A stretch of 64,000 nucleotides of DNA from Flavobacteriales bacterium (GCA_031411095.1 JANOAK010000023.1:13896-77895), one strand, 5' to 3'. Numbered from the stretch's first letter, positions 3,045 through 64,000 are shown. Notes: generated from the sequence alone by a model not told the origin. Numbers and translations: made by a program.

Positions 3045-3575
3045 ATGTCCATCAAGCGCCCCTTCAACCTCAAGGGCTGGATCGCGGACCATCGCGACCT
3101 GCTCAAGCCTCCTGTTGGCAACAAGAACCTGTATGCCGATGCGGGCGACTACATCGTGATGGTGGTGGGCGGGCCGAACGCGCGCAAGGATTATCACTGG
3201 AACGAGACCGAAGAGCTCTTCTATCAGGTGGAGGGCGACATTGAGGTGGGCATCCAGGAGGATGGCCAAGCCGTAACCATCCCCATCAGGGAGGGCGAGA
3301 TGTTCCTGCTGCCAGGTAGAACGCCGCATCAGCCACGCAGGGGGGCCGGCACGGTGGGCCTGGTGATCGAGGTCAAGCGCGATGATCGCGATCTGGAGGA
3401 CGGTCTGCAGTGGTACTGCGAAAAGTGCAACAACCTGTTGCATGAATACCGTTTTGTGCTGCACAACATTGAACAGGACTTCCTGCCCCGCTTCAAGGAG
3501 TTCTATACGGATGTCGACCTGCGCACGTGCAAGAAGTGCGGGCATGTAATGGAGGCGGACAAGCGCTTCATGTGA
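3045..3575 (+). CDS. 3-hydroxyanthranilate 3,4-dioxygenase (cupin)
   Basis: Characteristic HAAO sequence (NLKGWIADHRDLLKPPVGN, cupin His/Glu residues, C-terminal CxxC...CxxC rubredoxin-like site). Start taken at MSIKRPF. Confidence 0.8.
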   Translation: MSIKRPFNLKGWIADHRDLLKPPVGNKNLYADAGDYIVMVVGGPNARKDYHWNETEELFYQVEGDIEVGIQEDGQAVTIPIREGEMFLLPGRTPHQPRRGAGTVGLVIEVKRDDRDLEDGLQWYCEKCNNLLHEYRFVLHNIEQDFLPRFKEFYTDVDLRTCKKCGHVMEADKRFM

Positions 3576-25930: not shown

Positions 25931-26248
25931 GGTGATCGTGTTGCCTCTCAACCAAAATTAATAGATCAAGCTCACCCGCAAAGCGGGAGGTTGAGCATCC
26001 TTTTACGGGTAGGGGAAGCTCCGCCCACCTACCGCTTTACCGTGGTGGCCAGCATGGCGCAGGGGTGCGCGCGATCCAGCTTCTCGAGCGGTCGGACGCG
26101 CGATGCGTTTTGGGCAGCTCCTGCGATCGTGAACGGGTGATGGCCGTTATATCTTTCGAGAACGTGACCTATTTCTGCGCTTGATATATCGTGAGCAGAG
26201 CCGTCAACATCAACGGGACCGGTCGAACATCACCAGAACAGGACGCAC

Positions 26249-26614
26249 ATGGCACACTACGTAGATGGCTTCGTGATCCCGATGCCGGAGAAGAACCTGG
26301 CGGCCTACCGCCGCATCGCCACCAAGGCTGGCAAGGTCTGGATGGAACATGGGGCGCTCGCCTACTTCGAGTGCGTGGGCGACGACCTCGCACCGGAAGG
26401 CGTGGTGGCCACCTTCCCGCGCACCGTGAAGATCAAGCCCGGCGAGACCGTGGTCTTCTCCTGGATCATCTACCGCTCCCGTGCGCATCGCGATAGCGTG
26501 ATCAAGAAGGTGATGGCCGATCCGCGGCTGGCGACGATGATGGACCCCAAGAATTCTCCCTTCGATGTGAAGCGCATGGTGATGGGCGGCTTCAAGGTGC
26601 TCGTTGAAGCGTGA
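26249..26614 (+). CDS. DUF1428 family protein
   Basis: MAHYVDGFVIPMPEKNLAAYRRIA...FKVLVEA has the typical DUF1428 length and sequence. Confidence 0.7.
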   Translation: MAHYVDGFVIPMPEKNLAAYRRIATKAGKVWMEHGALAYFECVGDDLAPEGVVATFPRTVKIKPGETVVFSWIIYRSRAHRDSVIKKVMADPRLATMMDPKNSPFDVKRMVMGGFKVLVEA

Positions 26615-26785
26615 TAGGGGGCGATTCCTTCAGCGGGGCGGGTCGCGCTGAATGATGACGACGTGCAGCTGGCCGCAACCGCGTTCCCACTGCGGCTGTT
26701 ACGGATCCGTATTCCACTACGCACGCGCAGCGGTACAGAGATCAAGGAAGGCACGCTGTTGTAAATTCACCTTCCTGTTGGAAAA

Positions 26786-27280
26786 ATGAACAAGCACATG
26801 ACCCACGCAAAGAACACGATCTGCCTGTGGTACAATGGCGACGCCGAGGAGGCGGCCCGCTTTTACGCCAACACCTTCCCCGATTCCACCGTGAATGCCG
26901 TGTACAAGGCACCGGGCGATTTCCCAAGCGGAAAGCAGGGGGACGTGCTCACCGTGTTCTTCACCGTGCTGGGCATTCCCTGCATGGGGCTCAATGGGGG
27001 GCCAGCCTTCTCCCAGACCGAGGCCTTCTCGTTCCAGGTGGCCACGGTGGACCAGGCCGAGACCGATCGCTACTGGAACGCCATCGTGGGCAACGGAGGC
27101 CAGGCGAGCGCCTGCGGCTGGTGCAAGGATAAGTGGGGGGTCTCCTGGCAGATCACGCCCATCGCGCTCACGGAGGCGATCACCGATGCCGATCCTGCTG
27201 CGGCCAAGCGCGCCTTCGATGCCATGATGGGGATGCAGAACATCGACATCGCTGCCATCGAAAAGGCCAGACGGGGCTGA
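26786..27280 (+). CDS. VOC-family (PhnB / 3-demethylubiquinone methyltransferase-like) protein
   Basis: ICLWYNGDAEEAARFYANTFPDS...CGWCKDKWGVSWQI is the PhnB-like signature. Confidence 0.7.
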   Translation: MNKHMTHAKNTICLWYNGDAEEAARFYANTFPDSTVNAVYKAPGDFPSGKQGDVLTVFFTVLGIPCMGLNGGPAFSQTEAFSFQVATVDQAETDRYWNAIVGNGGQASACGWCKDKWGVSWQITPIALTEAITDADPAAAKRAFDAMMGMQNIDIAAIEKARRG

Positions 27281-27494
27281 TGGGGCGCAGAGCACCCGTG
27301 CAGAAAATGACCGATGCAATAGGCTTATTCCACCACTAAGCCGCAGGGTCATCCGCTCATCCAGGCTAAAGGCATGGATAGCGGAGAGATCAGGGCGTAT
27401 GCGGGAGGGCCCTGCACGGGCTGTGGATCCCCAGGCAAAGACTCGCATGGAGTGCAGCCACGGCACCGACAGGGGCATGGTTCAATTGTTGAGC

Positions 27495-27890
27495 AACGTA
27501 GGGCCCATGTTCGGCCGCAGTGCGCTAATGTTGGCCAACAATCCCCCGATGTTGGGCAATATTCGGCTGATGTTGGAGAACAATGCCCCCATGTTGGTCA
27601 ACATTCCCCCGATGTTGGACAACAATGTCCTGATGTGGGCTAACATTCCGCTGATGTTCGGCAACAATGCCCTGGTGTTGGTCAACATTCCGCCGATGTT
27701 GGGCAACACTGCCCTGATGTGGGGCAACATTCCGCTGATGTCGGACAACGAGCCACCTATGTAGATCAACATTCCGCTGTTGTTGGACAACGATCCACCG
27801 ATGTGGGTCAACATTCCCCTGATGTTGGGCAACACTGCCCTGATGTGGGTCAACATCCCGCTGAAGTTGGACAACAAACCCCCAATGCCA
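27495..27890. repeat. 21-bp tandem repeat (~19 copies; consensus CAACA(A/T)TCCNCTGATGTTGGG) = heptad period
   Basis: Direct reading of the sequence. The minus-strand frame stays open through the whole array (ORF 27482..28153, LPNIGGM/LTNTRAL heptads). The plus-strand frame contains a stop at ~27762. Confidence 0.85.
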
Positions 27891-27984
27891 GCACGCTGCA
27901 GCATTCGACGGCGCCGGTCGTGAGGTTCAAGCGCCAGTAGTATCGCAGCTGCCTGCGTGCCAGGGCAGCGGGGATCACCGACAA

Positions 27985-28021
27985 CTCGGGGCAGGCCGGC
28001 AAGAAGAAGGGGCGGAAGGAG
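27985..28021 (+). repeat. ~35-bp direct repeat copy A (..GGGGCAGGCCGGCAAGAAGAAGGGGCGGAAGGAG)
   Basis: One of three same-orientation copies (also ~31316-31348 and ~31923-31958), all intergenic, bounding gene modules of the island. Confidence 0.7.
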
Positions 28022-28146
28022 AACGGTCAAGCGCACGAGCGTTGACGCTTGCGCGAGTTGTGGGTTTTCCACAGCCAGGCGGACTATGAATGCGACGACG
28101 TTACTTTGAGCATCGGAGATTGACGATTTCCCCGCCATCAACAGCA

Positions 28147-29841
28147 ATGACAACCGCTCAGTTGACCCTCCTCGACCAGAGCGAGCTCTTGGAGCTTGTT
28201 CCTGCGCTTCCGCCGATTGAGGAAGGGGACAACCTCGGCGCCGTCTTCACCAAGGAATGGGTGGTGGATCTGATGCTCGATCTCTGCGACTATCGCGCGG
28301 AACATGACCTGTCGAAGATCCGGCTCTTGGAACCGTCCTGTGGTGATGGCGCGTTCCTCCAGTGCATCGTGAAGCGCCTGTCAACTTCGTTACGCACACA
28401 TGGCCACACCCTGAGCGATGCCCGCAACGCTATCCGCGCGTACGATCTGCAAAGCCGCAATGTGCAGGCTGCGCGCGAGCGAGTCGCGGAATTGCTCTTA
28501 GCTGACGGCTGGAACAACGTGAACGATCTCGTTGTGCACTGGATCCGCCACGCCGACTACCTGCTTGCACCCGACCCACCCCACTTCGATCTGGTGATCG
28601 GCAACCCGCCTTACATCCGTGCGCAGGAGATACCCGATGAGCGGCGCAACACCTACATCCGACTGTGGGACACCATGACCATGGGCACCGACATCTTCGT
28701 CGGCTTCATCGAGAAGGGCCTTCGCTCCTTGAAGCCCGAGGGCCGTCTGTGCTTCATCGTTGCGGATCGCTGGCAGCACAACGCCTACGGACGCAAACTC
28801 CGCAAGCTCATCAGCGAGCGCTACGCCGTGGATGCCATGTTCGAGATGCACGGCGTCGATGCCTTCGCAGCGCCCGTATCCGCGTATCCGGCGATCACCC
28901 TCATCCGGAGTGGCAAGCAGGGGTCTGTTCGGTACGCCAGCGCGCAGAGCGATCTCAACGCAGAAGGCGGGGAACGGCTCAAGGAATGGTTCGGACAGAA
29001 TGAGCCCGGTGCGACGCACGACCCGATGTTCTCGGCCTGCGTGCTGCCCGATTGGTTCCGCACCGAGGAGATCTGGCCCAGCGGCTCGCCTGAAGTGCTG
29101 GCCTTCCTGGAGGACATGTCCGAGCGCTTCCAAACGTTGGAAGATGCAACCACCGGTACCAAAGTGGGCATCGGCATTGCCACCGGTGCTGATGAGGTCT
29201 TCATCACCGATGATGCGGACTGCGTCGAAGCTGAGCGGTTGATTCCGCTGCTCACCTCAGCGGACATCACCACGGGCCGCGTGCGATGGAAAGGCAACTA
29301 CCTCGTGAACCCTTGGGACGAAAGTGGTCAGTTGGTTGACTTGTCGCATCGTCCCAAGTTGAGCGCCTATTTCGAGAAGCATTCGCCCATCCTGCGGAAG
29401 CGCCATGTGGCACAGAAGCGCATGGAACGCTGGTACGGTACCATCGACAAAGTGCATGCAGGCTTGCGCGAACGGCCCAAGCTGGTGCTGCAGGACATGA
29501 GCAGCACCATATCACCCGTGCTTGATACGCAGAACTATCCGCACCACAATCTGTACTGGATAACGAGCAGGGTGTGGGACCTCGAGGTGCTTGGTGGTCT
29601 CTTGCTTTCGGAAGTCGCCGAGTTATTCGTGCGCGCCTATGGCGTGAAAATGCGCAACGGCACCATGCGCTTCCAATCACAATACTTGCGCATGATCAGG
29701 GTGCCCGCTCCTTCAAGCCTCTCAACGGATCTTCAGGAGCGCTTGCGCACCGCTTTCCGAGAACGCGACCGCGCGATGGCCACACAAGCCGCATTGCTCG
29801 CCTACAATCTGGAGACGCTACCGAATTTCAAGGGGCGATGA
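28147..29841 (+). CDS. N6-adenine-specific DNA methyltransferase (gamma-class, Eco57I/TaqI-like)
   Basis: Motif I LEPSCGDGAFL and motif IV GNPPYIR. Start probably at MTTAQL (ORF opens at 28090). Confidence 0.8.
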   Translation: MTTAQLTLLDQSELLELVPALPPIEEGDNLGAVFTKEWVVDLMLDLCDYRAEHDLSKIRLLEPSCGDGAFLQCIVKRLSTSLRTHGHTLSDARNAIRAYDLQSRNVQAARERVAELLLADGWNNVNDLVVHWIRHADYLLAPDPPHFDLVIGNPPYIRAQEIPDERRNTYIRLWDTMTMGTDIFVGFIEKGLRSLKPEGRLCFIVADRWQHNAYGRKLRKLISERYAVDAMFEMHGVDAFAAPVSAYPAITLIRSGKQGSVRYASAQSDLNAEGGERLKEWFGQNEPGATHDPMFSACVLPDWFRTEEIWPSGSPEVLAFLEDMSERFQTLEDATTGTKVGIGIATGADEVFITDDADCVEAERLIPLLTSADITTGRVRWKGNYLVNPWDESGQLVDLSHRPKLSAYFEKHSPILRKRHVAQKRMERWYGTIDKVHAGLRERPKLVLQDMSSTISPVLDTQNYPHHNLYWITSRVWDLEVLGGLLLSEVAELFVRAYGVKMRNGTMRFQSQYLRMIRVPAPSSLSTDLQERLRTAFRERDRAMATQAALLAYNLETLPNFKGR

Positions 29842-30542
29842 AGAAGGACCATCGAAAGGAAGTCCTAGCCCTGTGGAAGCTGAGGTCCAAGGCGGAGAAG
29901 AAGGCGCGCAAGGGAGGCAACACCGACCCCGGTCTTCGCGCAGGCGTGACTTCTGGCCGACACTTGGACCCCTTGTCCCAGCTGATGCGAAGCATCTTCA
30001 TCGATGCGGGCATACCGGCGGCGGATGTGCATTGCGGGAGCACGAACTTGGAGATACCCGGATTCTATCGACCGCAGAAGAAGTGGGATGTGGTAGTAGT
30101 ACACAAGGGTGTACTGGTGGCGGCCGTGGAGTTCAAGAGCATTTTGGGTAGCTACGGCAACAACATGAACAACCGTACCGAGGAATCCCTGGGGAACGCT
30201 ACTGATCTGCTAGAAGCCGCCGAACAAGGCCTCATCGGCACAAGACCGCCGTGGCTGGGCTTCGTCTTCTTCATGCAGGATGATGAGCGCTCCCGCAAAG
30301 GAGGCAAGAGCGCCAAGCAACCGCATTTCAGTATCGATCCCGAATTCGTTGGCGCGAACTATCAGAGCCGCGCTTCGATCTGGTTGCGGCGCTTGCTGAT
30401 GAAGCGGCTCTACAACGCTGCTTGGTATGCATTGGTCGATCCTGCACAGGGTGTGGAGGGTGTGCGCGAGCCGGATGCCGAACTAAGTTGGGCCAAGTTC
30501 GAGGCAGCGATACGTGGAAGGGTTGGGGAGGTGTTGGCGTAG
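29838..30542 (+). CDS. Putative type II restriction endonuclease (PaeR7I/XhoI-like size and context)
   Basis: ATGA overlap with the MTase stop. 234 aa, acidic/Lys-rich core. Assignment rests on synteny and size, not on a recognised catalytic motif. Confidence 0.45.
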   Translation: MKKDHRKEVLALWKLRSKAEKKARKGGNTDPGLRAGVTSGRHLDPLSQLMRSIFIDAGIPAADVHCGSTNLEIPGFYRPQKKWDVVVVHKGVLVAAVEFKSILGSYGNNMNNRTEESLGNATDLLEAAEQGLIGTRPPWLGFVFFMQDDERSRKGGKSAKQPHFSIDPEFVGANYQSRASIWLRRLLMKRLYNAAWYALVDPAQGVEGVREPDAELSWAKFEAAIRGRVGEVLA

Positions 30543-30625
30543 GGTTTTCACGCCCTACGCATGACAGGTCGTTGGTGACTCCAAAATGGCACGGGCTTTT
30601 CTATCGCAGGCCTATCCATATCGCC

Positions 30626-31243
30626 ATGACAGCAATCCGGCACGCACTTCAAGGAGCAAGGGAGCAGTTCGACTTCTGTACGCATGCACTGTCGTACTTT
30701 GAGAAGAAGGATGAATCATCCCGGAAGGTTGGAGCGAACGTCATTCTTCAGTCCGGCCGTGCTATCACGTATGGCATGGAGACCTTGGCCAAAGCCAGCC
30801 ATGAATTCGCGACGTGGTACAGGCCATATGGAGCTGAGCTGCATGCTGATCCCATTCTGAAGTATTTCCGGGAAGTCCGGAATGTGATTGTTCACCGGTC
30901 TGGCAGGATTGAGTTGAACCACATCTCAACCGTACCCATTAATGACCCCAAGCCAGGAGCCATCGAGGAACTCATCGCCGACGGTTCGACCATTGACCAT
31001 ATGAACATCGACTTTCTCAAGAACAGGAGATACTTGGTTGTCCGAACCCCCTATGGAAGGCGGGAAGAGAGGGACGTTCCTCAAAGGCGGGAAGGACCGT
31101 GGTGGCTGTTGGTCGATGTACAATCCTACTTCAAAGACGCCCCAGTGGAGTTCGCGGGCGTAACAGTGGTTGAAAGTTGCCAGCGGTATGTGCGTTTCCT
31201 TGGTCGTCTAATCCAGGATGCTGAAGTCAGGTTTGGCATGTAG
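30626..31243 (+). CDS. Hypothetical protein (possible HEPN-like Rx4H motif), island cargo
   Basis: Lower-GC ORF after the R-M pair. RNVIVH motif. No confident homology. Confidence 0.35.
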   Translation: MTAIRHALQGAREQFDFCTHALSYFEKKDESSRKVGANVILQSGRAITYGMETLAKASHEFATWYRPYGAELHADPILKYFREVRNVIVHRSGRIELNHISTVPINDPKPGAIEELIADGSTIDHMNIDFLKNRRYLVVRTPYGRREERDVPQRREGPWWLLVDVQSYFKDAPVEFAGVTVVESCQRYVRFLGRLIQDAEVRFGM

Positions 31244-31315
31244 TACGAAATGCGAGGCTACGAGTCACAGACTCACGGCAGTGGAGGGAGCAAAACTGCC
31301 GTATGCATGACCGAG

Positions 31316-31348
31316 CTGGGGACTGGCAAGAAGAAGGGGAGGAGGTAG
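31316..31348 (+). repeat. ~35-bp direct repeat copy B
   Basis: CTGGGGACTGGCAAGAAGAAGGGGAGGAGGTAG. Intergenic, between the hypothetical gene and the RusA-like gene. Confidence 0.7.
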
Positions 31349-31408
31349 ACTGGGGAGTAAGTTCGAAGACGCCGGGGCTCCACCTCGGGACACCATGGCG
31401 GATTAGAC

Positions 31409-31873
31409 TCACGTAGAGTCCTGCCGTCGAACACAGAAGAAAATGCCCGGTGGCTCTTGGACGTGTTTAGAAGCTTCGATGTGAAAGACCTGCTTGTCAT
31501 CGACAAACAGTATACCCTTCACACAATCAAGAAGCGTCTTGACCATATTGTCCAGGTCAACACGTTGCACGTATTCCCTGGGGCCATTGATTGAGATCAA
31601 GACATTCAGTCTCTCTTGGTACGGCATATCAGCATCGCGCCCCAGTAATTCGACCTGCTTCCTAAGAGCTTCAACGAAGGGCCGATACCGTTCCTTTCGG
31701 TTCTTCATTTGGCCCGTTGGCAACGGAGTGTCAAGAATGGCCATAAACACCTTCTCCCACCCCACCGTGTAAAAGGTAGCCGGCGATTCTAGTCTATCCT
31801 CCTCGGGAATCTCCTCCGGTGGAATGGAGGAGACCTGTCCCTCGCGGAGAAAGTCGAGCATTCGGGGTTTCAT
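31409..31873 (-). CDS. RusA-like Holliday-junction resolvase (endodeoxyribonuclease)
   Basis: ...VDLDNMVKTLLDCVKGILFVDDKQVFHIEASK matches the RusA catalytic Asp cluster. Typical phage/island gene. Confidence 0.5.
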   Translation of the reverse strand: MKPRMLDFLREGQVSSIPPEEIPEEDRLESPATFYTVGWEKVFMAILDTPLPTGQMKNRKERYRPFVEALRKQVELLGRDADMPYQERLNVLISINGPREYVQRVDLDNMVKTLLDCVKGILFVDDKQVFHIEASKHVQEPPGIFFCVRRQDST

Positions 31874-31922
31874 GGCCGATAAAGATAACTGGACACAATT
31901 GCTCCATTGCGCAGGCGAGCGA

Positions 31923-31958
31923 CCGCTTCACAACGGGGACTACGCAAGAAGAAGGGGC
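31923..31958 (+). repeat. ~35-bp direct repeat copy C
   Basis: ACGGGGACTACGCAAGAAGAAGGGGCGGAAGTAGAG. Intergenic, between the RusA-like and HNH-domain genes. Confidence 0.7.
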
Positions 31959-31983
31959 GGAAGTAGAGCGGGATGGTGGCTGG

Positions 31984-33156
31984 TCAGCCGCGCTTGCCGG
32001 TTGCAGGGTTGAGGCGATGCAGAACCCAAGGAGTTATCACTTCCATTATCGACTTAACCACTTCATCAATCATCGCAGTGGTAATAGTTGTGCCGTCCGG
32101 GTATTTTCCGAGGGATTGCTGAATGGCTCGCCCGATGAGACCTTCCCGATGACTGTCTTCTTGCCTCTCCATAGCAATTGAGAGGACACGATGAAATCTC
32201 CGGCGCACCTCGTCAAACGGTTTGGCATCCTTGCGGATGAAGAGGTCAGTAAGCTGGTCCCGGGTATAACGAAGCGATATTGTTCGGTCTCTCTCAAGGT
32301 TCGCCACGACGTCGTACACGTACGTCTTGTCCAGTTCTCTACCGTCATAGTTGTCGTTCAATCGCACAATGAAATTGCGAGTGTTGAACAGTTCCACGTA
32401 TGCATAAAGTACCCTTTGCGCCGGATCGCCAACTAGCCGCAAGACATGGCTTACTTCTGTCCGGCCGGATTCATAGATGGGTTTCACGGGATAGTGCATC
32501 CACACAACATCTTGATCGTTGCTCCCTTCCACATAAGGCAACAGATGAGCGATGTGTTTCCTCAGACCACCTCGGTAAGTGAAGTAGCCGATCGCGATCT
32601 TGGTAATTGCACGGAAGACCTCCTTACTTCCCACATTAGCTTCAAAGTGGATCCTATCATCCAGATAGTCCTGCGACCGAGTAGCGGACTTGATTGCCGC
32701 CTCAACATCCAACTGAGCATATTTGCGCTTAAACCCGTTTAGGATCCTGCGAAACTCGCTCTCATCTCTTGCTGAGATAGAAATCGTAATCTGGTCGCCA
32801 TCGATTACTTCTTCAACAGTCGGTTTGGCCATTCTAGGGCTTCCATCTCGCTCAAGCGAAACGGCTTCACCGGTTGAGGTCAGCGTCCCTCGTATTGGTT
32901 GTGGCTCTCCTCTATCACGTTTGATGATCAGGAGGTTGGCCAAGTCATTGTTCTGATCGCTCAGCGCATTATCAACCTCAGAGCCAAACCTCGAATTGCA
33001 TGTCCGGCAGAGAATCTTCGCCTTGAGCCATCCTCCACAAGCATTGGGGATGATGTGCTCCTTGCTTGCGTTGGTGCTCGAGAGGATTGTATCGCAACGA
33101 TAGCATCGTTCATTTGGCATTGTTCTATGGTTTGGCCGGTGAAGCAACGAAGGCAT
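31984..33156 (-). CDS. HNH-endonuclease-domain protein with a large uncharacterised C-terminal domain
   Basis: N-terminal CYRCDTILSSTNASKEHIIPNACGG...CRTCNSRFG (C-x2-C...H...C-x2-C HNH signature). Start at 33120 or 33156. Low GC. Confidence 0.6.
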   Translation of the reverse strand: MPSLLHRPNHRTMPNERCYRCDTILSSTNASKEHIIPNACGGWLKAKILCRTCNSRFGSEVDNALSDQNNDLANLLIIKRDRGEPQPIRGTLTSTGEAVSLERDGSPRMAKPTVEEVIDGDQITISISARDESEFRRILNGFKRKYAQLDVEAAIKSATRSQDYLDDRIHFEANVGSKEVFRAITKIAIGYFTYRGGLRKHIAHLLPYVEGSNDQDVVWMHYPVKPIYESGRTEVSHVLRLVGDPAQRVLYAYVELFNTRNFIVRLNDNYDGRELDKTYVYDVVANLERDRTISLRYTRDQLTDLFIRKDAKPFDEVRRRFHRVLSIAMERQEDSHREGLIGRAIQQSLGKYPDGTTITTAMIDEVVKSIMEVITPWVLHRLNPATGKRG

Positions 33157-33306
33157 TGGGATTGAAGTCAGATAGCCGACGTTCTCAGATGTGGCGGAGC
33201 GAAAATGCACGCGCGATAATCAGGACGGTGTAGCGACTGAGCAGGGGCCGGTTGCCTAGGTGGGAGTTCCATTGATGTAAGGGTATCATGCTCTATCTCC
33301 TTCGGC

Positions 33307-36081
33307 CTATCGGTAGAGATCAACAAAGGCCCTTTCCAGTTGAGGATCTCGATGTTCTTGGAGGTGTGCCGAAAGCTGTACGCGGATGGCGTCGTGTTTG
33401 CGCATCTCGGCGAAGTAGTATTTGGTTGGATACGCAGCAATCCACTTTACATCGAACAGCGTATAGTCAAAGCCGGCCATGTCAAGGAGCCAGTCATAGT
33501 AGCTGTCGAAGCCGCGCAAGCCAGAGAATCTCTCGTGCCTAAGGTCGATGCCTTCCTTGAAGCACAGATTGATGAACATATCCAAGATGAGACGGCGTTT
33601 ATCTTCCTCTCCAGACATGGCCGTTCTGAAAGTAGGGTGGTCGTGAACAGGATGGGCGGCTAGGAGCAGCTTGTCGAGGAACTCGTCCTCGACCTGCAGT
33701 ACATCGTGGATAACAGCATCATAGTAGAGGTCTGGTTCAAATCTGTTTCTCAGCCGTGCCTCGATGCTCTGTTCGATCATCCCCCTGGACTCAGCATTGG
33801 ATGAAAGCCGGTGTATCGGAATCAACCAATCGCCTGGATGCTCGTGCTTGCAGAGGGGGCATTTTCCGGTGGTCAGGTCAATGAAGCGTTTAACCTCGGC
33901 TTTGGAAAGGGCCATTTGGCCATGATGTCTCAATGCTTCGGACAGAGCACCAAGCATATTCTCGTCGTGCAACTTCTGGGTCTTGGGAACGCTGCGTAGC
34001 AAGGCCTCCAACGTTGCCTTATCAATCAGTTTGGCCTTCCTGTGTACGAATCGTTGAATGTGTTCAGTGATACCGCGATTGAGCAAGGTGTTGGCACGGA
34101 GAGCCTCTGGTAGCTTGCGGGCAATTACATTCACATCGGCTGCATTCAAGTTCGATAGCGACGCTAGTACGAAGAGGTTGTCGACCAATGTGTTGTACTT
34201 CTGAATGAAGGACGTGTTGGTCTTGCCAAACGACTTCCTGAAAGCCTTGGCCACTTCAATGGCATCATCGAGAATTCGAGTAATCACGGCCACTAACGAT
34301 TCGCCGGACGAGGCCGATGGTTTGTACTGAATCTCCTTGAGATGGTGGCGATGGAAGTGTTTCAGAATGCGCTTCGGTTCGCTGTGCCATACCAATTTGT
34401 TAATTATCCAGTCGTCAAAATGGGGCAAACGACTCTTCTGCTCAGGTGCAATAGCATGCGAGGCGAAGAGACCCTCGCTGAAAATGTCCGTAATCTGGCG
34501 GTACTCATCGAAGCAATCGAAGTACACGAAGTCCTTGCTCAGGAATTCATCCAGGTCAGCGTAGTCCTTGATCAACTCACTGATGTGACTGTTCGAGCTC
34601 CAGCCACCCCGTAGCTGGCTATGATAGTGGTCCCGTATCTCAGTGACCGTCTTGTACAAGACATACATCGTTTCCGAATGGAAACGCCCCTTGTCGATCC
34701 ATTCGTGAAAGCGACTGTTTTTGTCCGCCTTCGGCAGGGTCATTCGAATCGCCGCAAGATCTATCGTGGCGAGTCGTTCGATTAACGCGGTAGGCTCCTG
34801 CTCCCCCCAGTAGTTGTTTCGAAGGTGCGGCCTCAGTTTGGACAAGCTATACGAACTGAGGACGTATTGCGACCACTCCTCTTTGCGCTTATGTTCTGCA
34901 CTTGCTTGCTCAAGCAACTCCGCAGCCTCAACGAAGTTGCCAAGCTTGTAGTGGGAGTAGGCCAAGAGCTGGAGATTGTTCGTCTTGTCGACCCCTATTG
35001 AGATAGCCGCGAAGGCTCCCCGAAAATCCAGTCGATCTATTCGGCACCTCACGCAATCACACTTTACGCTATCACTGTAGCGGACGCTTGCCCACTCGCG
35101 TGACTTGTGAGCAGCGATGTAGAAGACAAGGCTGGACGAAAGGCGCTTGAGGATGTAACGAATCTTTTTCTGCGGATTGGTGACCCCCTTTGTCCAGGAG
35201 CTGTCATTGAACTGCACCTTGCCCGGGCCAGTAATTTTCACGGCCTTGAACAGATCGATCAGCTCCTCATTGTCAACCGTCAGGGTGAATTGATCATGGC
35301 GTGGATGGAATGAACTGCTCACACGGAAAGGATAGCTCCGTGTGAAGTACTCACTTGGCATATGGTGCAGTTCACCGAACCGCTCGAACATGTACCGATA
35401 GAGTTGTTCCAGGATCGGTCGAGTGCGGTCGACGGAAATCTGAACGGTATCCTCTCCAAGAAGATGGCGGCTGCGATCTTGTAGCTGGCGTTCGAACAGA
35501 AATTGCTTGCTTGCTTCGATATCTTTCTTGAGGCTGATCAATCGCTTTGGTAGCAGCCTGCCGTTCTTTCGAAGGCAACGCTGAGGATCAATGCGTATTT
35601 GAATGCTCTCGCCATCCCGACGTGACTGACCGCTGGCAATAGATTCGACTTTGCTTGCATACCCGTGGTCGAAGTCTAGTTGAATGGGGCACCAGTAAAT
35701 GGACTTGGTCTTCAAGTCGCAAACTGTCACAATGCAAACATTTTCGTGGTCTTTGGCGAGATATCGGAGTGTCTCAGCACGATCAATCTTGTGGGTGAGA
35801 AATCCCTTGTTGGCGCCTCTGACCTTCTCTGCTAGCGCCTTGTCAGTTCCCTTGTTCTGGATAAATACCGTTTGTATAAGGTCAAGGGAGGGAAGATCAT
35901 CGGGAGTCTTCGCCGTTGTGTTTTGAAATTCTACGGCAAAGTCGATTCCCCTCTCTTTGTGATATTGGTTAAACTTCAATTCGCTCTTTGTAGACTGAGA
36001 AAGTTCCCGTAACGTACCCTGCATGAGTTCGTTCGCTTCGTCTTCGATCTCATCTGTTGTTTTGGGGCGCTTGTTCATCAA
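33307..36081 (-). CDS. 924-aa protein with N-terminal DUF4365-like (restriction-endonuclease-fold) domain, long alpha-helical middle region and C-terminal Cys-rich motifs
   Basis: N-terminus ...ERGIDFAVEF...VFIQNKGTDK... fits the D-E-(Q)K nuclease-like pattern. No P-loop. CPLCKHEH and CDCVRCR motifs. GC ~50% versus a ~65% background. Same strand as, and adjacent to, the HNH-domain gene. Confidence 0.55.
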   Translation of the reverse strand: MMNKRPKTTDEIEDEANELMQGTLRELSQSTKSELKFNQYHKERGIDFAVEFQNTTAKTPDDLPSLDLIQTVFIQNKGTDKALAEKVRGANKGFLTHKIDRAETLRYLAKDHENVCIVTVCDLKTKSIYWCPIQLDFDHGYASKVESIASGQSRRDGESIQIRIDPQRCLRKNGRLLPKRLISLKKDIEASKQFLFERQLQDRSRHLLGEDTVQISVDRTRPILEQLYRYMFERFGELHHMPSEYFTRSYPFRVSSSFHPRHDQFTLTVDNEELIDLFKAVKITGPGKVQFNDSSWTKGVTNPQKKIRYILKRLSSSLVFYIAAHKSREWASVRYSDSVKCDCVRCRIDRLDFRGAFAAISIGVDKTNNLQLLAYSHYKLGNFVEAAELLEQASAEHKRKEEWSQYVLSSYSLSKLRPHLRNNYWGEQEPTALIERLATIDLAAIRMTLPKADKNSRFHEWIDKGRFHSETMYVLYKTVTEIRDHYHSQLRGGWSSNSHISELIKDYADLDEFLSKDFVYFDCFDEYRQITDIFSEGLFASHAIAPEQKSRLPHFDDWIINKLVWHSEPKRILKHFHRHHLKEIQYKPSASSGESLVAVITRILDDAIEVAKAFRKSFGKTNTSFIQKYNTLVDNLFVLASLSNLNAADVNVIARKLPEALRANTLLNRGITEHIQRFVHRKAKLIDKATLEALLRSVPKTQKLHDENMLGALSEALRHHGQMALSKAEVKRFIDLTTGKCPLCKHEHPGDWLIPIHRLSSNAESRGMIEQSIEARLRNRFEPDLYYDAVIHDVLQVEDEFLDKLLLAAHPVHDHPTFRTAMSGEEDKRRLILDMFINLCFKEGIDLRHERFSGLRGFDSYYDWLLDMAGFDYTLFDVKWIAAYPTKYYFAEMRKHDAIRVQLSAHLQEHRDPQLERAFVDLYR

Positions 36082-36217
36082 TCTCTAATTTGTCGACAAC
36101 TCTTGTTTAAGCGTAACCCGCGTTAGGGACAGCAGTGGAAAGCCCGGAGCCGTCTTCGGCGAGGACTTGGAACGAATGGCCCGACGGCGAGTCTTCGAGC
36201 CGGAACGCCCAAATACT

Positions 36218-54337: not shown

Positions 54338-55177
54338 TCAAATGCTTTGACGTACGTGGTCTCGCAGGCATATGACTCCGCCCGTCGGCCCCATCGCGTT
54401 CATCCCGAAGTCCACCTTCAGCGCCCCGTCGTTGGTCACACGTTTCCGGTAGGTCGCCAATGTGCGCAAGGGTTCCTTTCCGCGTTGGCCGGTGAACTGG
54501 TCGGTGGTGGTGATCACGCAACGCGAACAGGGCTTCACCAAGGAGAAGCGCGTGTCCCCAATGGTGATCTCTTTCCAACCATCCTCTTGGAACGCATGCC
54601 CACCCGCGATCACGATGTTCGGACGGAAACGATCCATGGGGACATGTGCCCATGTGCCCATGTGCGCATGTGCCCATGTGGTGCCGCGCGCGTTCAGGTC
54701 ATCCAACGATGCCTGCGAGATGATCAAGTAGGGAAAGCCATCGCTCAGCGACGTGATGCCCGACGCATATTTCATGTCCACCGGGCGACGCGAGGCCTCG
54801 GGCATGTATACCAACCTGCAAGGAACGCGAAGTCGTTCCGCGAACCAGGCGGAGACCTCCTCCGCCGCGGGTAACACATACACCAGGTCACCCCAGACGT
54901 GTGCCCGGCGTTCTTCACCATCGGCGATGGACCAAGGCAGATCGAAGGTCGATCCATCGCGGATGTCCGTCACGCGGAAACCGTTCGATAGTGGCGAGCA
55001 GTGCAGGCAGGCCATGGTCGGTACTTCGCGTTGCGTGAGGAATTGATCGGGACCGGTCACCAGCATCCAGCGCCGGTCATGTTCGAAACCACGGTCGGTG
55101 AGGCGCGCTGCATCCACGGAAAAGCCGCCGAGCGACTTGATCGGATATACATGCAGGGACGCGACCGAAAGCTCCAT
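54338..55177 (-). CDS. MOSC-domain protein (MOSC_N beta-barrel + MOSC)
   Basis: LHVYPIKSLGG N-terminus. Conserved Cys in KPCSRCVITT. ATGA overlap with the upstream cytochrome gene stop. Confidence 0.8.
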   Translation of the reverse strand: MELSVASLHVYPIKSLGGFSVDAARLTDRGFEHDRRWMLVTGPDQFLTQREVPTMACLHCSPLSNGFRVTDIRDGSTFDLPWSIADGEERRAHVWGDLVYVLPAAEEVSAWFAERLRVPCRLVYMPEASRRPVDMKYASGITSLSDGFPYLIISQASLDDLNARGTTWAHAHMGTWAHVPMDRFRPNIVIAGGHAFQEDGWKEITIGDTRFSLVKPCSRCVITTTDQFTGQRGKEPLRTLATYRKRVTNDGALKVDFGMNAMGPTGGVICLRDHVRQSI

Positions 55178-62389: not shown

Positions 62390-62900
62390 CCACCGCCTCC
62401 GGCGGCCTTCATGGCTTATTAACCACAGATGACACGGATGGATGCAGCTCCGCGGCGTCCGCGTCCCGCGTGATGTATAACCAACACCGCCTCCGGCGGT
62501 CTTCAATGCTTTTCAACCACAGATGGACACGGATGAACACAGATGAATGCAGAACCTGACCTCCTTCGTGGCCTCCGTGCCTCTGTGTGACGCCTGGCAC
62601 CTCCTTCGCGCTCTTTGCGGTAAAACCCCTTCTGCGCGCCCGCCTCCGGCGGCCTTCATGGCTTTTTTAACCGCAGATGACGCAGATGAATGGAGCAAGG
62701 CCCGCGTGAGGCTCCTTCAACGCTTTTTCAACCGCAGATGACACAGATGACGCAGATGGAAGCAAACGCTGACCTCCTCTGTGGCCTCCGTGCCACTATG
62801 TGATGCCTGGCACTCCCTTCGCGCCCTCTGCGTGCTCTGCGCCCCTCGCCTGCGCGGAAGCCGCTTCGGCGGGCGCAGGTCTGCGTGAGGCTCTGGTCAC
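62390..62900. repeat. Composite intergenic repeat region (two or three copies of a ~60-130-bp element plus nested sub-repeats CAGATGA(C)AC)
   Basis: Copies at ~62391-62447, ~62486-62620 and ~62639-62832, each starting with the hairpin CCGCCTCCGGCGG + TTCATGGCTTTT. The TGACCTCCT..GTGGCCTCCGTGCC..GCCTGGCAC..TTCGCGC block occurs twice. Confidence 0.75.
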
Positions 62901-62901
62901 C

Positions 62902-63792
62902 TCACAGCACGTTCAGCACCTGCTCCTTGATCTTCTCCAGTTCATCCTTCATCAACACCACATTGCGTTGCATGATCGCATCGTTGGCCTTGCTGCCCAG
63001 CGTGTTGATCTCGCGCCCCATCTCCTGCGTGATGAATCCGAGCTTACGGCCCTGTTGCTCTTCTTTTTCCAGCGTTTCGCGGAAGTAGGCGCAATGCGTG
63101 CGCAGCCGCACCTTCTCCTCGTTGATGTCCATCTTCTCCAGGTAGAACACCAGCTCCTGCTCAAAGCGGTCCTGGTCCACCTTGGCCTGCAGTTCCGCCA
63201 GGCGGCCTTGGATGCGCTCGCGCGTACGTTCGGCGCGACCGCTGTCCTGCGCGTCCACTTCATTCAGCAGGGACTCAATGCGATCGCAGCGCATGCGCAG
63301 GTCATCATGCAGTTTGCGGCCTTCCGCCTCGCGGAAGGACTGGTAGGCCTTCAGGGCTTCCTTCACCAGTGCATGCACGCCCTTCCATTCCAACTCGCCG
63401 AGGCTTTCGTTGGCGCTGCCGGTGACCTCGGGCATGCGCAGCACCAGTCCCATCAGGTCGGTCTGCGCATTGGGATCCACGGCCTGGGTCACGGCGAGGA
63501 GCTCGTCGTACATGGCCTTCACCAAGGCCGTATCGTAGCTGCCACGTCGCGTGCCGGGGGCCAGTTCGCTCTGCACGCTCACCTCGGCCTTGCCGCGCAT
63601 CACCGTTTCGCTCACCAGTTGTCGCAATTCGGTGTCCTTCTCCTTGTACAGGCTGGGCAGCTTGATGAAAAGGTCGAGCTGTTTGCTGTTCAGCGAGCGC
63701 ACTTCCACCGTGACCTTCTTGGCCGCAGTATTGGGGGTGCCCGGGTCGACCAGGCCTTCGGCGCGGCCGAAGCCGGTCATGGAGCGGAGCAT
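62902..63792 (-). CDS. yicC: YicC-family stress-induced protein (DUF1732)
   Basis: MLRSMTGFGRAEG...N-terminus and YicC C-terminal domain. Classic yicC-gmk neighbourhood. Confidence 0.8.
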   Translation of the reverse strand: MLRSMTGFGRAEGLVDPGTPNTAAKKVTVEVRSLNSKQLDLFIKLPSLYKEKDTELRQLVSETVMRGKAEVSVQSELAPGTRRGSYDTALVKAMYDELLAVTQAVDPNAQTDLMGLVLRMPEVTGSANESLGELEWKGVHALVKEALKAYQSFREAEGRKLHDDLRMRCDRIESLLNEVDAQDSGRAERTRERIQGRLAELQAKVDQDRFEQELVFYLEKMDINEEKVRLRTHCAYFRETLEKEEQQGRKLGFITQEMGREINTLGSKANDAIMQRNVVLMKDELEKIKEQVLNVL

Positions 63793-63852
63793 GCGATGTG
63801 TTCCTGTTGGAATGGGGATGGCGAAGGTAGAAGGGGCTTTGTCTTGGGAGAC

Positions 63853-64000
63853 CTATTCCAACAACACCCGCTGAGCTCCGTAGCCCTCTGCCCGCACGAT
63901 GTACAAACCATTGGCAAGGCCTGCGGTGCTGAAGGGAACCGTTGTGCCGAAGCCGGCGTTGACCACACGGCCCAGCTCATCAAGTAACTCAATGCGGCAG
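63853..64000 (-). CDS. C-terminal fragment of a T9SS-secreted protein (gene continues beyond the window end)
   Basis: Minus-strand frame reads ...IELLDELGRVVNAGFGTTVPFSTAGLANGLYIVRAEGYGAQRVLLE*, which is a type-A sorting domain. Confidence 0.6.
   Translation of the reverse strand, partial: CRIELLDELGRVVNAGFGTTVPFSTAGLANGLYIVRAEGYGAQRVLLE

Follow-up and report, generated by a model that had tools for sequence, protein, structure and literature searches.

Between a VOC/PhnB-like gene and a restriction-modification (R-M) pair, a contig of a Flavobacteriales bacterium (GCA_031411095.1, JANOAK010000023.1:13896-77895) holds a tandem array of 21-bp units, through which one open reading frame (ORF) of the minus strand runs without a stop. 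The 64,000 nucleotides analysed are referred to here as the window. An initial annotation of this window had noticed about 19 tandem units at the left edge of an island, and had offered three explanations for them: a variable heptad-repeat or fibrous protein, a contingency locus or, as a fallback, a non-coding array whose in-frame periodicity is coincidental. Both the number of units and the position at an island edge are confirmed below, and the evidence favours the fallback. The array is best explained, with a probability of roughly 60%, as an ordinary non-coding intergenic minisatellite, which would have originated by slippage or unequal exchange and would now be decaying. The interval of 27480-28153 that had been given for the feature fits the minus-strand ORF, but not the repeat, which covers only 27486-27884 (Table 1).

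The array is the only strong one that Tandem Repeats Finder (TRF) reports in the window, with boundaries at 27523/27528 and 27877/27882 and scores of 272-442. It comprises 16.9 copies with 69% matches at a period of 21, 8.5 copies with 78% matches at a period of 42, and 2.8 copies with 80% matches and 0% indels at a period of 126. In a fixed 21-nt register counted from 27486, 19 consecutive units can be aligned as ATGTTGGNCAACA... up to 27884, with a net indel of zero across the 399 bp, the two outermost units at either end being degenerate. Positions 1-14 of the consensus unit, ATGTTGGNCAACATTCCCCTG, form a 14-bp palindrome with the dyad ATGTTG-N2-CAACAT, where positions 2-4, 6-7, and 9-13 are conserved. 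The paired core TGTKGGNCAACA-N9-TGTKGGNCAACA occurs five times in the array, against 0.00 expected (none in 100 shuffles of the window), and no further occurrence of the core was found outside the array in the 64 kb.

Two types of units alternate along the array, namely A (..CAACAATGCCCCG; also given as ..GGACAACAATGCCCCG) and B (..CAACATTCCGCTG; also given as ..GGTCAACATTCCGCTG), which differ at positions 8, 14, 16, 18, and 20. Due to this alternation, the true unit is 42 bp long. Segments separated by the superperiods of 42 bp (78%) and 126 bp (80%) are more alike than neighbouring 21-bp units (69%), and the longest exact repeat, of approximately 28 bp, is found at a distance of 126 bp. The 126-bp block is the latest duplication in the array. 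A MITE-like element (miniature inverted-repeat transposable element) was considered as well and rejected, as no terminal inverted repeats were found around the array.

The minus-strand frame is what such a unit produces by construction. Several long ORFs arise automatically in this array: its period is divisible by three, and the unit ATGTTGGNCAACATTCCCCTG is stop-free in five of the six frames. The minus frame is open through the entire array and reads as heptads of the form NI(G/S/R)(G/A)(M/L)L(P/T/S), with a column profile of N, I, (G/S/R), (G/A), (M/L/V), L, (P/T/S) and a superperiod of 14 residues, just as the initial annotation had described it. Its description of the plus strand as broken by a stop is also true, yet incomplete: two plus frames and a second minus frame contain one stop each, so that four of the six frames are open or nearly so. 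In the plus frame that reads DVGQ the stop is a TAA at 27641-27643, while in the plus frame that reads MLxN it is the TAG at 27762-27764, a TTG-to-TAG change in one unit. On an identical public contig (L040), the gene caller selected the two plus-strand ORFs, 27447-27764 and 27801-27923, and not the minus-strand one.

Simulations corroborate that these frames are expected. When the columns were shuffled among units, the minus frame remained stop-free in 94% (period 21) and 90% (period 42) of the trials, and when an idealised array was subjected to 81 or 64 random substitutions, it was still open in 9.5% and 14% of them, respectively. Random mutation of the consensus is also expected to leave single stops, as observed, in the other three frames. 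One surviving frame among four candidates is thus unremarkable, and the open minus frame is not informative on coding. The palindromic dyad adds to the resemblance between frames, since both strands therefore read ATG TTG xxC AAC AT, that is, M-L-x-N-(I/M); for the same reason, the plus-strand 'MLGNIPP' and the minus-strand 'MLPNIGG' are mirror-like, and their codon statistics are alike. Differences in repeat number by non-multiples of seven codons among isolates had been suggested as a sign against a protein, but they cannot discriminate, because gain or loss of whole units always adds or removes seven codons.

The possibility that the minus frame encodes a real small heptad-repeat protein, a coiled-coil-like fibre with the motif N-I-x-G-M-L-x, probably starting at an internal ATG such as the one at 27905 and comprising about 140 residues, is unlikely, even though it has several observations in its favour. 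The minus frame is the only one without a stop, and the absence of indels is consistent with the maintenance of a reading frame. Its heptads carry hydrophobic residues at a, d, and e (I, M/L, L), and its codon score of 0.26 and GC content at third codon positions (GC3) of 0.82 lie within about one standard deviation of host genes (0.40 +/- 0.14 and 0.78). However, these values rest on only seven codons, repeated, and the mirror-image plus MLxN frame, with a codon score of 0.17 and the same GC3, has the same statistics through the palindrome. The 89 non-repeat codons at the N-terminus, a part that crosses a 28-nt motif and reaches into the start of the methylase gene, are non-coding-like (codon score of -0.15, GC3 of 0.60), and the codon score of both array flanks is negative in every frame.

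The comparison between units also argues against a protein. The ratio of non-synonymous to synonymous changes (pN/pS), computed for pairs of units 42-252 bp apart, amounts to 0.97-1.69 in the minus frame, where the units show no purifying selection. It is 0.59-0.86 in the plus MLxN frame and 0.37-0.54 in the plus DVGQ frame, the lowest of all. Leucine is encoded by TTG in 21 of its 24 codons in the minus frame, against 18% of TTG in 15 long host ORFs, and the synonymous change from TTG to CTG is observed once; GGA accounts for 8 of the 19 glycine codons, against 13% in the host. Since these synonymous sites are frozen, what is conserved is the DNA, unless the units are simply alike through recent common descent, and not the protein.

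Searches for relatives of the putative protein point in the same direction. Neither the minus ORF nor the 105-residue plus ORF has a homologue among 5.8 billion clustered proteins in a word-indexed search, and a Pfam scan of four frames yielded sub-threshold matches of repeat type only, with no family at threshold. An exhaustive HMMER search with the minus ORF retrieved 149 proteins (best E = 2.6e-21), with nearly all matches falling in the repeat part. The long matches that were examined are coiled-coil stalks of a YadA-anchored adhesin and of phage tail and fibre proteins, whereas most of the short ones examined can be recognised as translated 21-bp satellites from elsewhere (SNIDSLL, SNIRSVL, NIGCMLS, TNFKALL). 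When periodic sequences are compared, a single matching unit is counted over and over, which inflates the E-values. These matches were consequently rejected as homology: what is shared is periodicity and composition, not descent.

The HMMER matches to heptad stalks reach E = 3e-16. Like the stalks of trimeric autotransporter adhesins and phage tail fibres, the minus-strand translation has a period of seven residues, hydrophobic residues at a, d, and e, and asparagine. Those aligned by HMMER include a protein with a YadA anchor (P0004) and two with phage-fibre domains (P0011 and P0012), in all of which the heptads contain glycine as well, and one with NNYSGIL heptads (P0003). AlphaFold2, in single-sequence mode, models the minus repeat as one helix of 140 residues, with a predicted local distance difference test score (pLDDT) of 82-94 over residues 90-220, in contrast to the plus frame, which is disordered (pLDDT of 38). 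The helix and the hydrophobic pattern speak for the protein of the initial annotation, but the composition speaks against a real coiled coil. The repeat contains 13.3% glycine and 5.5% proline (19% together), with Gly-Gly or Pro in most heptads, a content that is incompatible with a stable continuous coiled-coil helix.

Furthermore, the N-terminus of the minus ORF is modelled with a pLDDT below 50, and Foldseek found no fold match for the model in the PDB. Unlike the stalk proteins, the minus ORF has no anchor, head, signal peptide, or other domain in the Pfam scan, and shows neither purifying selection nor orthologues, its similarities being to generic repeats and translated satellites. The array is also missing from contigs that carry the same VOC gene. 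The heptad-repeat or fibrous protein put forward in the initial annotation is therefore not supported, given a frame expected from the unit, a pN/pS of about one or higher, frozen TTG codons, a non-coding-like N-terminus, and the lack of homologues.

A remnant of a plus-strand gene, killed by one stop either in the MLxN(I/N)PP frame (TAG at 27762) or in the DVGQ(H/Q)(S/C)P frame (TAA at 27641), is very unlikely. In both plus frames the interruption is a single point change from the consensus, although one stop per frame is also what random decay would leave. The MLxN frame was the choice of the gene caller and has the GC3 of a host gene, but its pN/pS, its lack of homologues, and its predicted disorder do not recommend it. 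In the DVGQ frame, the variable positions 5, 8, 14, and 20 are the third bases of GTN, GGN, CAN, and NCY, and its low pN/pS fits with this. This signal is weak, since any site class with a periodicity of three is the third position of some frame, and the variation at positions 8, 14, and 20 is largely the fixed difference between A and B units. As a gene, the DVGQ frame was rejected on the grounds of this A/B variation, its stop, a GC3 of 0.33 against 0.78 in the genome, and a codon score of -0.35.

Another way of accounting for the regularity of the array is to regard it as a set of protein-binding sites. According to this proposal, the 19 dyads (ATGTTG-N2-CAACAT) would be operators phased by 21 bp, or two helical turns, on one face of the DNA, where a dimeric protein would polymerise as on iterons or plasmid centromeres, forming a boundary, an anchor, or a silencer beside mobile cassettes. 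The palindromic core and the strict 21-bp register without indels agree with this, as does the conservation of positions that are synonymous in every plausible frame, which fits a constraint on the DNA. With 1.7 changes per site, against 2.9 in the spacer, the core is the somewhat better conserved part, but when the 42-bp unit is taken as the basis, the spacer is conserved almost as well. In addition, the dyad is broken in four to five units (TGTGG...CAACA) with no compensating change, and a dyad of 5-6 bp has, by our own estimate, a probability of about 3-10% in a random 21-bp unit. The proposal is accordingly unlikely.

Arrays with known roles in plasmid replication and partition are the natural term of comparison. 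Iterons of 20-22 bp and parC repeats are found on plasmids other than F. In the sopC site of the F plasmid itself, a 43-bp direct repeat is present 12 times, and SopB binds to the 16-bp inverted repeat that every copy contains (PMC3177203). Like these, the window array is made of many direct repeats with a dyad motif at a spacing of whole helical turns, and its superunit of 42 bp comes close to the 43 bp of sopC. Contrary to them, it lies in a chromosomal housekeeping context and lacks a cognate partition or replication gene nearby; within about 8 kb on either side, genes for Rep, Par, an integrase, or a regulator are absent. A BLAST search against 72,556 plasmids and 50,697 phages gave no match to the array, and a literature search for the core sequence returned unrelated primers only.

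Pattern scans for two cores 21 bp apart, carried out in genome, metagenome, and viral collections, did find the same TGTTG-N2-CAACA core repeated every 21 bp at evidently non-coding sites of unrelated genomes (L023; L002, L003, L005, and L033), to which L056 is added by a protein search, and this would suit a binding array. The scans of genome and metagenome collections yielded 6 and 27 loci, respectively, of which about nine distinct ones are 21-bp arrays of 6-22 units. However, the core was imposed by the search pattern, and the number of look-alikes is about what chance predicts by our own rough estimate, which expects tens of matches. Even the 300 kb of fetched flanks are rich in 21-bp arrays that no pattern had targeted. 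The look-alikes were for these reasons rejected, as unproven, as a conserved family. They are short and isolated, and intergenic where their flanks were examined (e.g., L023, L005, and L056), a placement that supports such arrays being non-coding.

The look-alikes of two Tepidisphaerales metagenome-assembled genomes (MAGs) have the sequence ATGTTGGSCAACATG..., and one of them lies beside an IS200-like Y1 transposase ORF; the array of L002 (6913-7185) is located next to an IS200-like Y1 transposase ORF and REP-like repeats. A Bacteroidia MAG array has stops in most frames, the 21-bp unit of a Nostoc array (L006) contains TTGGTCA/CAACA, and L033 and L034 provided further 21-bp arrays. On L023, a metagenome contig with 41% GC, an array of nine units (1439-1620) with the core ATGTTGRTCAACAAT fills the 312-bp spacer (1380-1691) between the S8 and L6 genes (rpsH-rplF); the interior of a ribosomal-protein operon is an unusual site for an insertion. 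The array of L056 (about 270-560), with TTGTTGATCAACAT cores, was found independently through a protein search; it directly follows the stop of a gene and has TTG/TTA leucine codons in a GC-rich contig. The arrays at L002 6913-7185, L003 (about 3165-3460), and L056 hold dyads of the TGTTG-N2-CAACA type and open 'N-x-x-x-M/L-L-x' frames on both strands, and they use the rare leucine codons TTG and TTA in GC-rich hosts. Finally, an 8.2-kb contig of Escherichia sp. (L001, 594-740) contains TTGTGGGACAACATGCC twice in direct orientation and then four times inverted (ATGTTGTCCCA), at a 21-bp spacing, which resembles the iteron cluster of a small replicon and is unrelated to the window array.

It is quite unlikely that the 21-bp arrays with the TGTTG-N2-CAACA core constitute one functional class, on which a dimeric DNA-binding protein of wide distribution, or its counterpart for RNA, would land at sites phased by two helical turns. 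Its members could be the window array and those of the two Tepidisphaerales MAGs, the Bacteroidia MAG, the rpsH-rplF spacer, L033, and L056. A phasing requirement could then bar indels, and the leucine-rich 'heptad ORFs' of both strands could be a mirror-image by-product of the palindrome.

Two metagenome contigs (L007 and L008) encode an identical VOC protein, with 96.8% nucleotide identity. Their similarity to the window breaks off directly behind the VOC stop codon, which places the array at the left edge of the island. There, an unrelated spacer of 192 bp replaces the 704-bp segment that bears the array in the window, and is followed by the shared 28-nt motif. The sole public contig that spans the array, L040, matches the window at 100% identity, while L041 breaks within the array. 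Exact look-ups of the ORFs in the flanks and in the array yielded, besides L040, only contigs that end before reaching the array or break within it. Judging by the contigs described here and by the R-M cassettes treated next, the array is private to this lineage.

Nor does the array accompany the R-M pair. The closest homologues of the methylase are 92% identical, followed by others at 75-84%, several of the latter in MAGs labelled Flavobacteriales. In the three that were looked up (92%, 84%, and 83% amino acid identity), the methylase stands beside an XhoI-family gene in quite different neighbourhoods, and no 21-bp array was found upstream of the R-M cassette in those three contigs. The presence of the same R-M pair in differing neighbourhoods that lack the array indicates that the pair is mobile and that the array is not part of it. 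The alternative of an array travelling with the cassette was rejected, as related cassettes have no array and carry their own short upstream region. In other high-GC contigs (L045-L055), the neighbours of the R-M cassette include a PKD protein with a type IX secretion system (T9SS) tail, an RND efflux operon, and an fn3 protein. The occurrence of the cassette in such contigs also hints at a high-GC Bacteroidota as the source of the window.

These observations weaken the contingency locus of the initial annotation, in which the number of repeats would tune the expression of the downstream R-M operon. Examples of such tuning by repeats between genes exist, among them the heptanucleotide (7-bp) contingency tracts upstream of hmw1A and hmw2A in Haemophilus influenzae (PMC8262952, PMC12721329). 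As in those loci, the window has a repeat tract upstream of a gene with possibly variable expression, since 260 bp separate the end of the array from the methylase start, and the 28-bp exact repeat at a distance of 126 bp could allow occasional slippage or recombination. However, contingency loci are made of identical units of 1-7 bp with a high slippage rate, whereas the units of the window are 21 bp long, 20-30% diverged, and separate from the downstream cassette. With 69% identity between adjacent units and 78-80% at 42/126 bp, they are too diverged for efficient slippage, and a change by whole units would never shift the frame. Moreover, a junction motif and a hairpin lie between the array and the cassette, which occurs elsewhere with its own upstream region, and the two public samples that cover the array are identical to the window. 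A contingency locus is thus highly improbable.

The least probable of the proposals is a structured or protein-sponging non-coding RNA composed of repeated small hairpins, which is highly improbable. Every core is able to fold into a 5-bp stem capped by a GGNC loop, and the plus-strand fold has a z-score of -3.45 relative to shuffles. However, that of the minus strand is -0.28, the predicted structure is heterogeneous, and the stem-breaking T-to-G change at position 5 is uncompensated, with no covariation. Rfam gave no matches at E <= 1 over 26000-33000, and no tRNA or tmRNA was found. No promoter- or terminator-like sites were found, in a scan that is of limited value if the host belongs to Bacteroidota.

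A non-coding minisatellite is the best supported of the proposals. The array consists of head-to-tail units of at least 10 bp outside conserved coding sequence, is absent in close relatives, and has a higher-order structure, which are the features by which minisatellites are recognised. In the proposed course of events, a 21-bp unit built around the palindrome ATGTTG-N2-CAACAT would have been amplified by replication slippage or unequal recombination, growing first as the 42-bp A/B doublet and then as the 126-bp block. Later decay by point substitution would have brought neighbouring units to their present 69% identity. The minus-strand ORF would have escaped all stops by chance, giving rise to no protein, or to none that matters. 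The array lies in a spacer of fast turnover where mobile cassettes insert beside the VOC gene.

Minisatellites and variable-number tandem repeats of other bacteria offer a suitable precedent. The short tandemly repeated repetitive (STRR) sequences of heterocystous cyanobacteria are heptamer-based. Both these and the window array are composed of head-to-tail units of tens of bp outside conserved genes, are lineage-specific, have a higher-order periodicity arising from unequal exchange, and have no known product (STRR elements are mentioned in PMC2670836 and PMC4046671). The window differs in the strong divergence of its units (69%), which are probably no longer variable in length, and in its palindromic core.

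Several observations nevertheless weigh against an array without function. The net indel is zero in spite of 64-81 differences from the consensus, whereas independent neutral events should have left a few indels, a hint that either the reading frame or the helical phase is constrained. Minor-allele counts per site, taken within unit types, are 1.7 in the core and 2.9 in the spacer, and the heterogeneity among columns has a P of about 0.013, assuming independence. Variation by codon class is distributed as 23/14/9, a weak 3-base periodicity with a P of about 0.04 if events are independent. The confident helix predicted by AlphaFold2 for the minus repeat belongs here as well, and lack of function is, by its nature, not something that a sequence can prove.

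Table 1. Coordinates of the array, the frames it contains, and its neighbours in the window.
Feature	Position	Strand	Remarks
VOC/PhnB-like gene (Pfam 3-dmu-9_3-mt)	26786-27280	+	Upstream neighbour; conserved in relatives without the array
Left flank, VOC stop codon to array	27284-27485	.	Non-coding-like in six frames; no counterpart in L007 and L008
Plus ORF, MLxN(I/N)xx heptads	27447-27764	+	Choice of the gene caller on L040; ends at TAG 27762-27764; judged spurious
Minus ORF, 223 aa, TTG start	27482-28153	-	C-terminal 128-140 residues are heptads; N-terminal 89 codons (27885-28153) non-coding-like; judged not a gene
Tandem array, 19 x 21 bp	27486-27884	.	Consensus ATGTTGGNCAACATTCCCCTG; A/B units, 42-bp superunit; 126-bp higher-order repeat x2.8
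Well-preserved part of the array	27528-27882	.	TRF, 16.9 copies at period 21
Continuation of the plus frame past the TAG, 40 aa	27801-27923	+	Called as a gene on L040; judged spurious
Right flank, array to first 28-nt motif copy	27885-27997	.	Non-coding-like in all frames
28-nt direct repeat GGCAAGAAGAAGGGGCGGAAG..., first copy	27998-28026	+	Junction with the R-M cassette
R-M pair	28147-30542	+	Eco57I/TaqI_C-type N6-adenine methylase 28147-29841; XhoI-family endonuclease 29838-30542
Ea47-like ORF	30626-31243		In lower-GC block
RusA	31409-31873	-	In lower-GC block
HNH_5 protein	31984-33210	-	In lower-GC block
TPR-like protein, 923 aa	33307-36081	-	In lower-GC block; no family assignment

The neighbourhood of the array is chromosomal. 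Upstream, it comprises genes for a Laminin_G_3 protein, a DUF1428 protein, and the VOC/PhnB-like protein, while beyond the R-M pair it continues with a weak Ea47-like ORF, RusA, the HNH_5 protein, the 923-residue TPR-like protein, and formate dehydrogenase. The GC content falls from approximately 0.61 to 0.50-0.55 across 30000-36100 of the window, and this lower-GC block is probably of foreign origin, related to defence, or left over from a prophage.

A 28-nt direct repeat, GGCAAGAAGAAGGGGCGGAAG(G/T)AGA (motif GGCAAGAAGAAG...), is present on the plus strand at 27998-28026, 31325-31353, and 31943-31971, against zero occurrences in shuffles of the window. Its copies, of which the second and third also lie at intergenic junctions, bracket two segments, one with the R-M pair and the Ea47-like ORF and the other with RusA. 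The relative L007 has one copy (861-883) at the equivalent place, where the R-M and RusA genes are absent. This motif looks like a recombination or insertion hot spot for small cassettes, and its first copy in the window lies within a 17-nt inverted repeat (27972-27988 / 28054-28070). Elsewhere in the window, three short arrays of CAGATGA-type repeats of 9-10 bp (62518-62758) precede an ORF at 62800-63987, and an 8-bp repeat, CATGTGCC, is present in 4.8 copies at 54643-54680.

Were the array a set of phased palindromic binding sites, it would represent an undescribed nucleoprotein element at the edge of a hot spot for defence genes, although nothing found here requires it. Its more general lesson is one of caution: repeats with a period of 3n and a stop-free unit yield long heptad ORFs on both strands. 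Such ORFs mislead gene callers, as illustrated by the two plus-strand calls on the public contig, and attract confident-looking AlphaFold helices together with significant-looking HMMER E-values to real coiled-coil proteins. Once it is shown that the unit by itself accounts for the open frame, a spurious 'fibrous protein' is kept out of the annotation.

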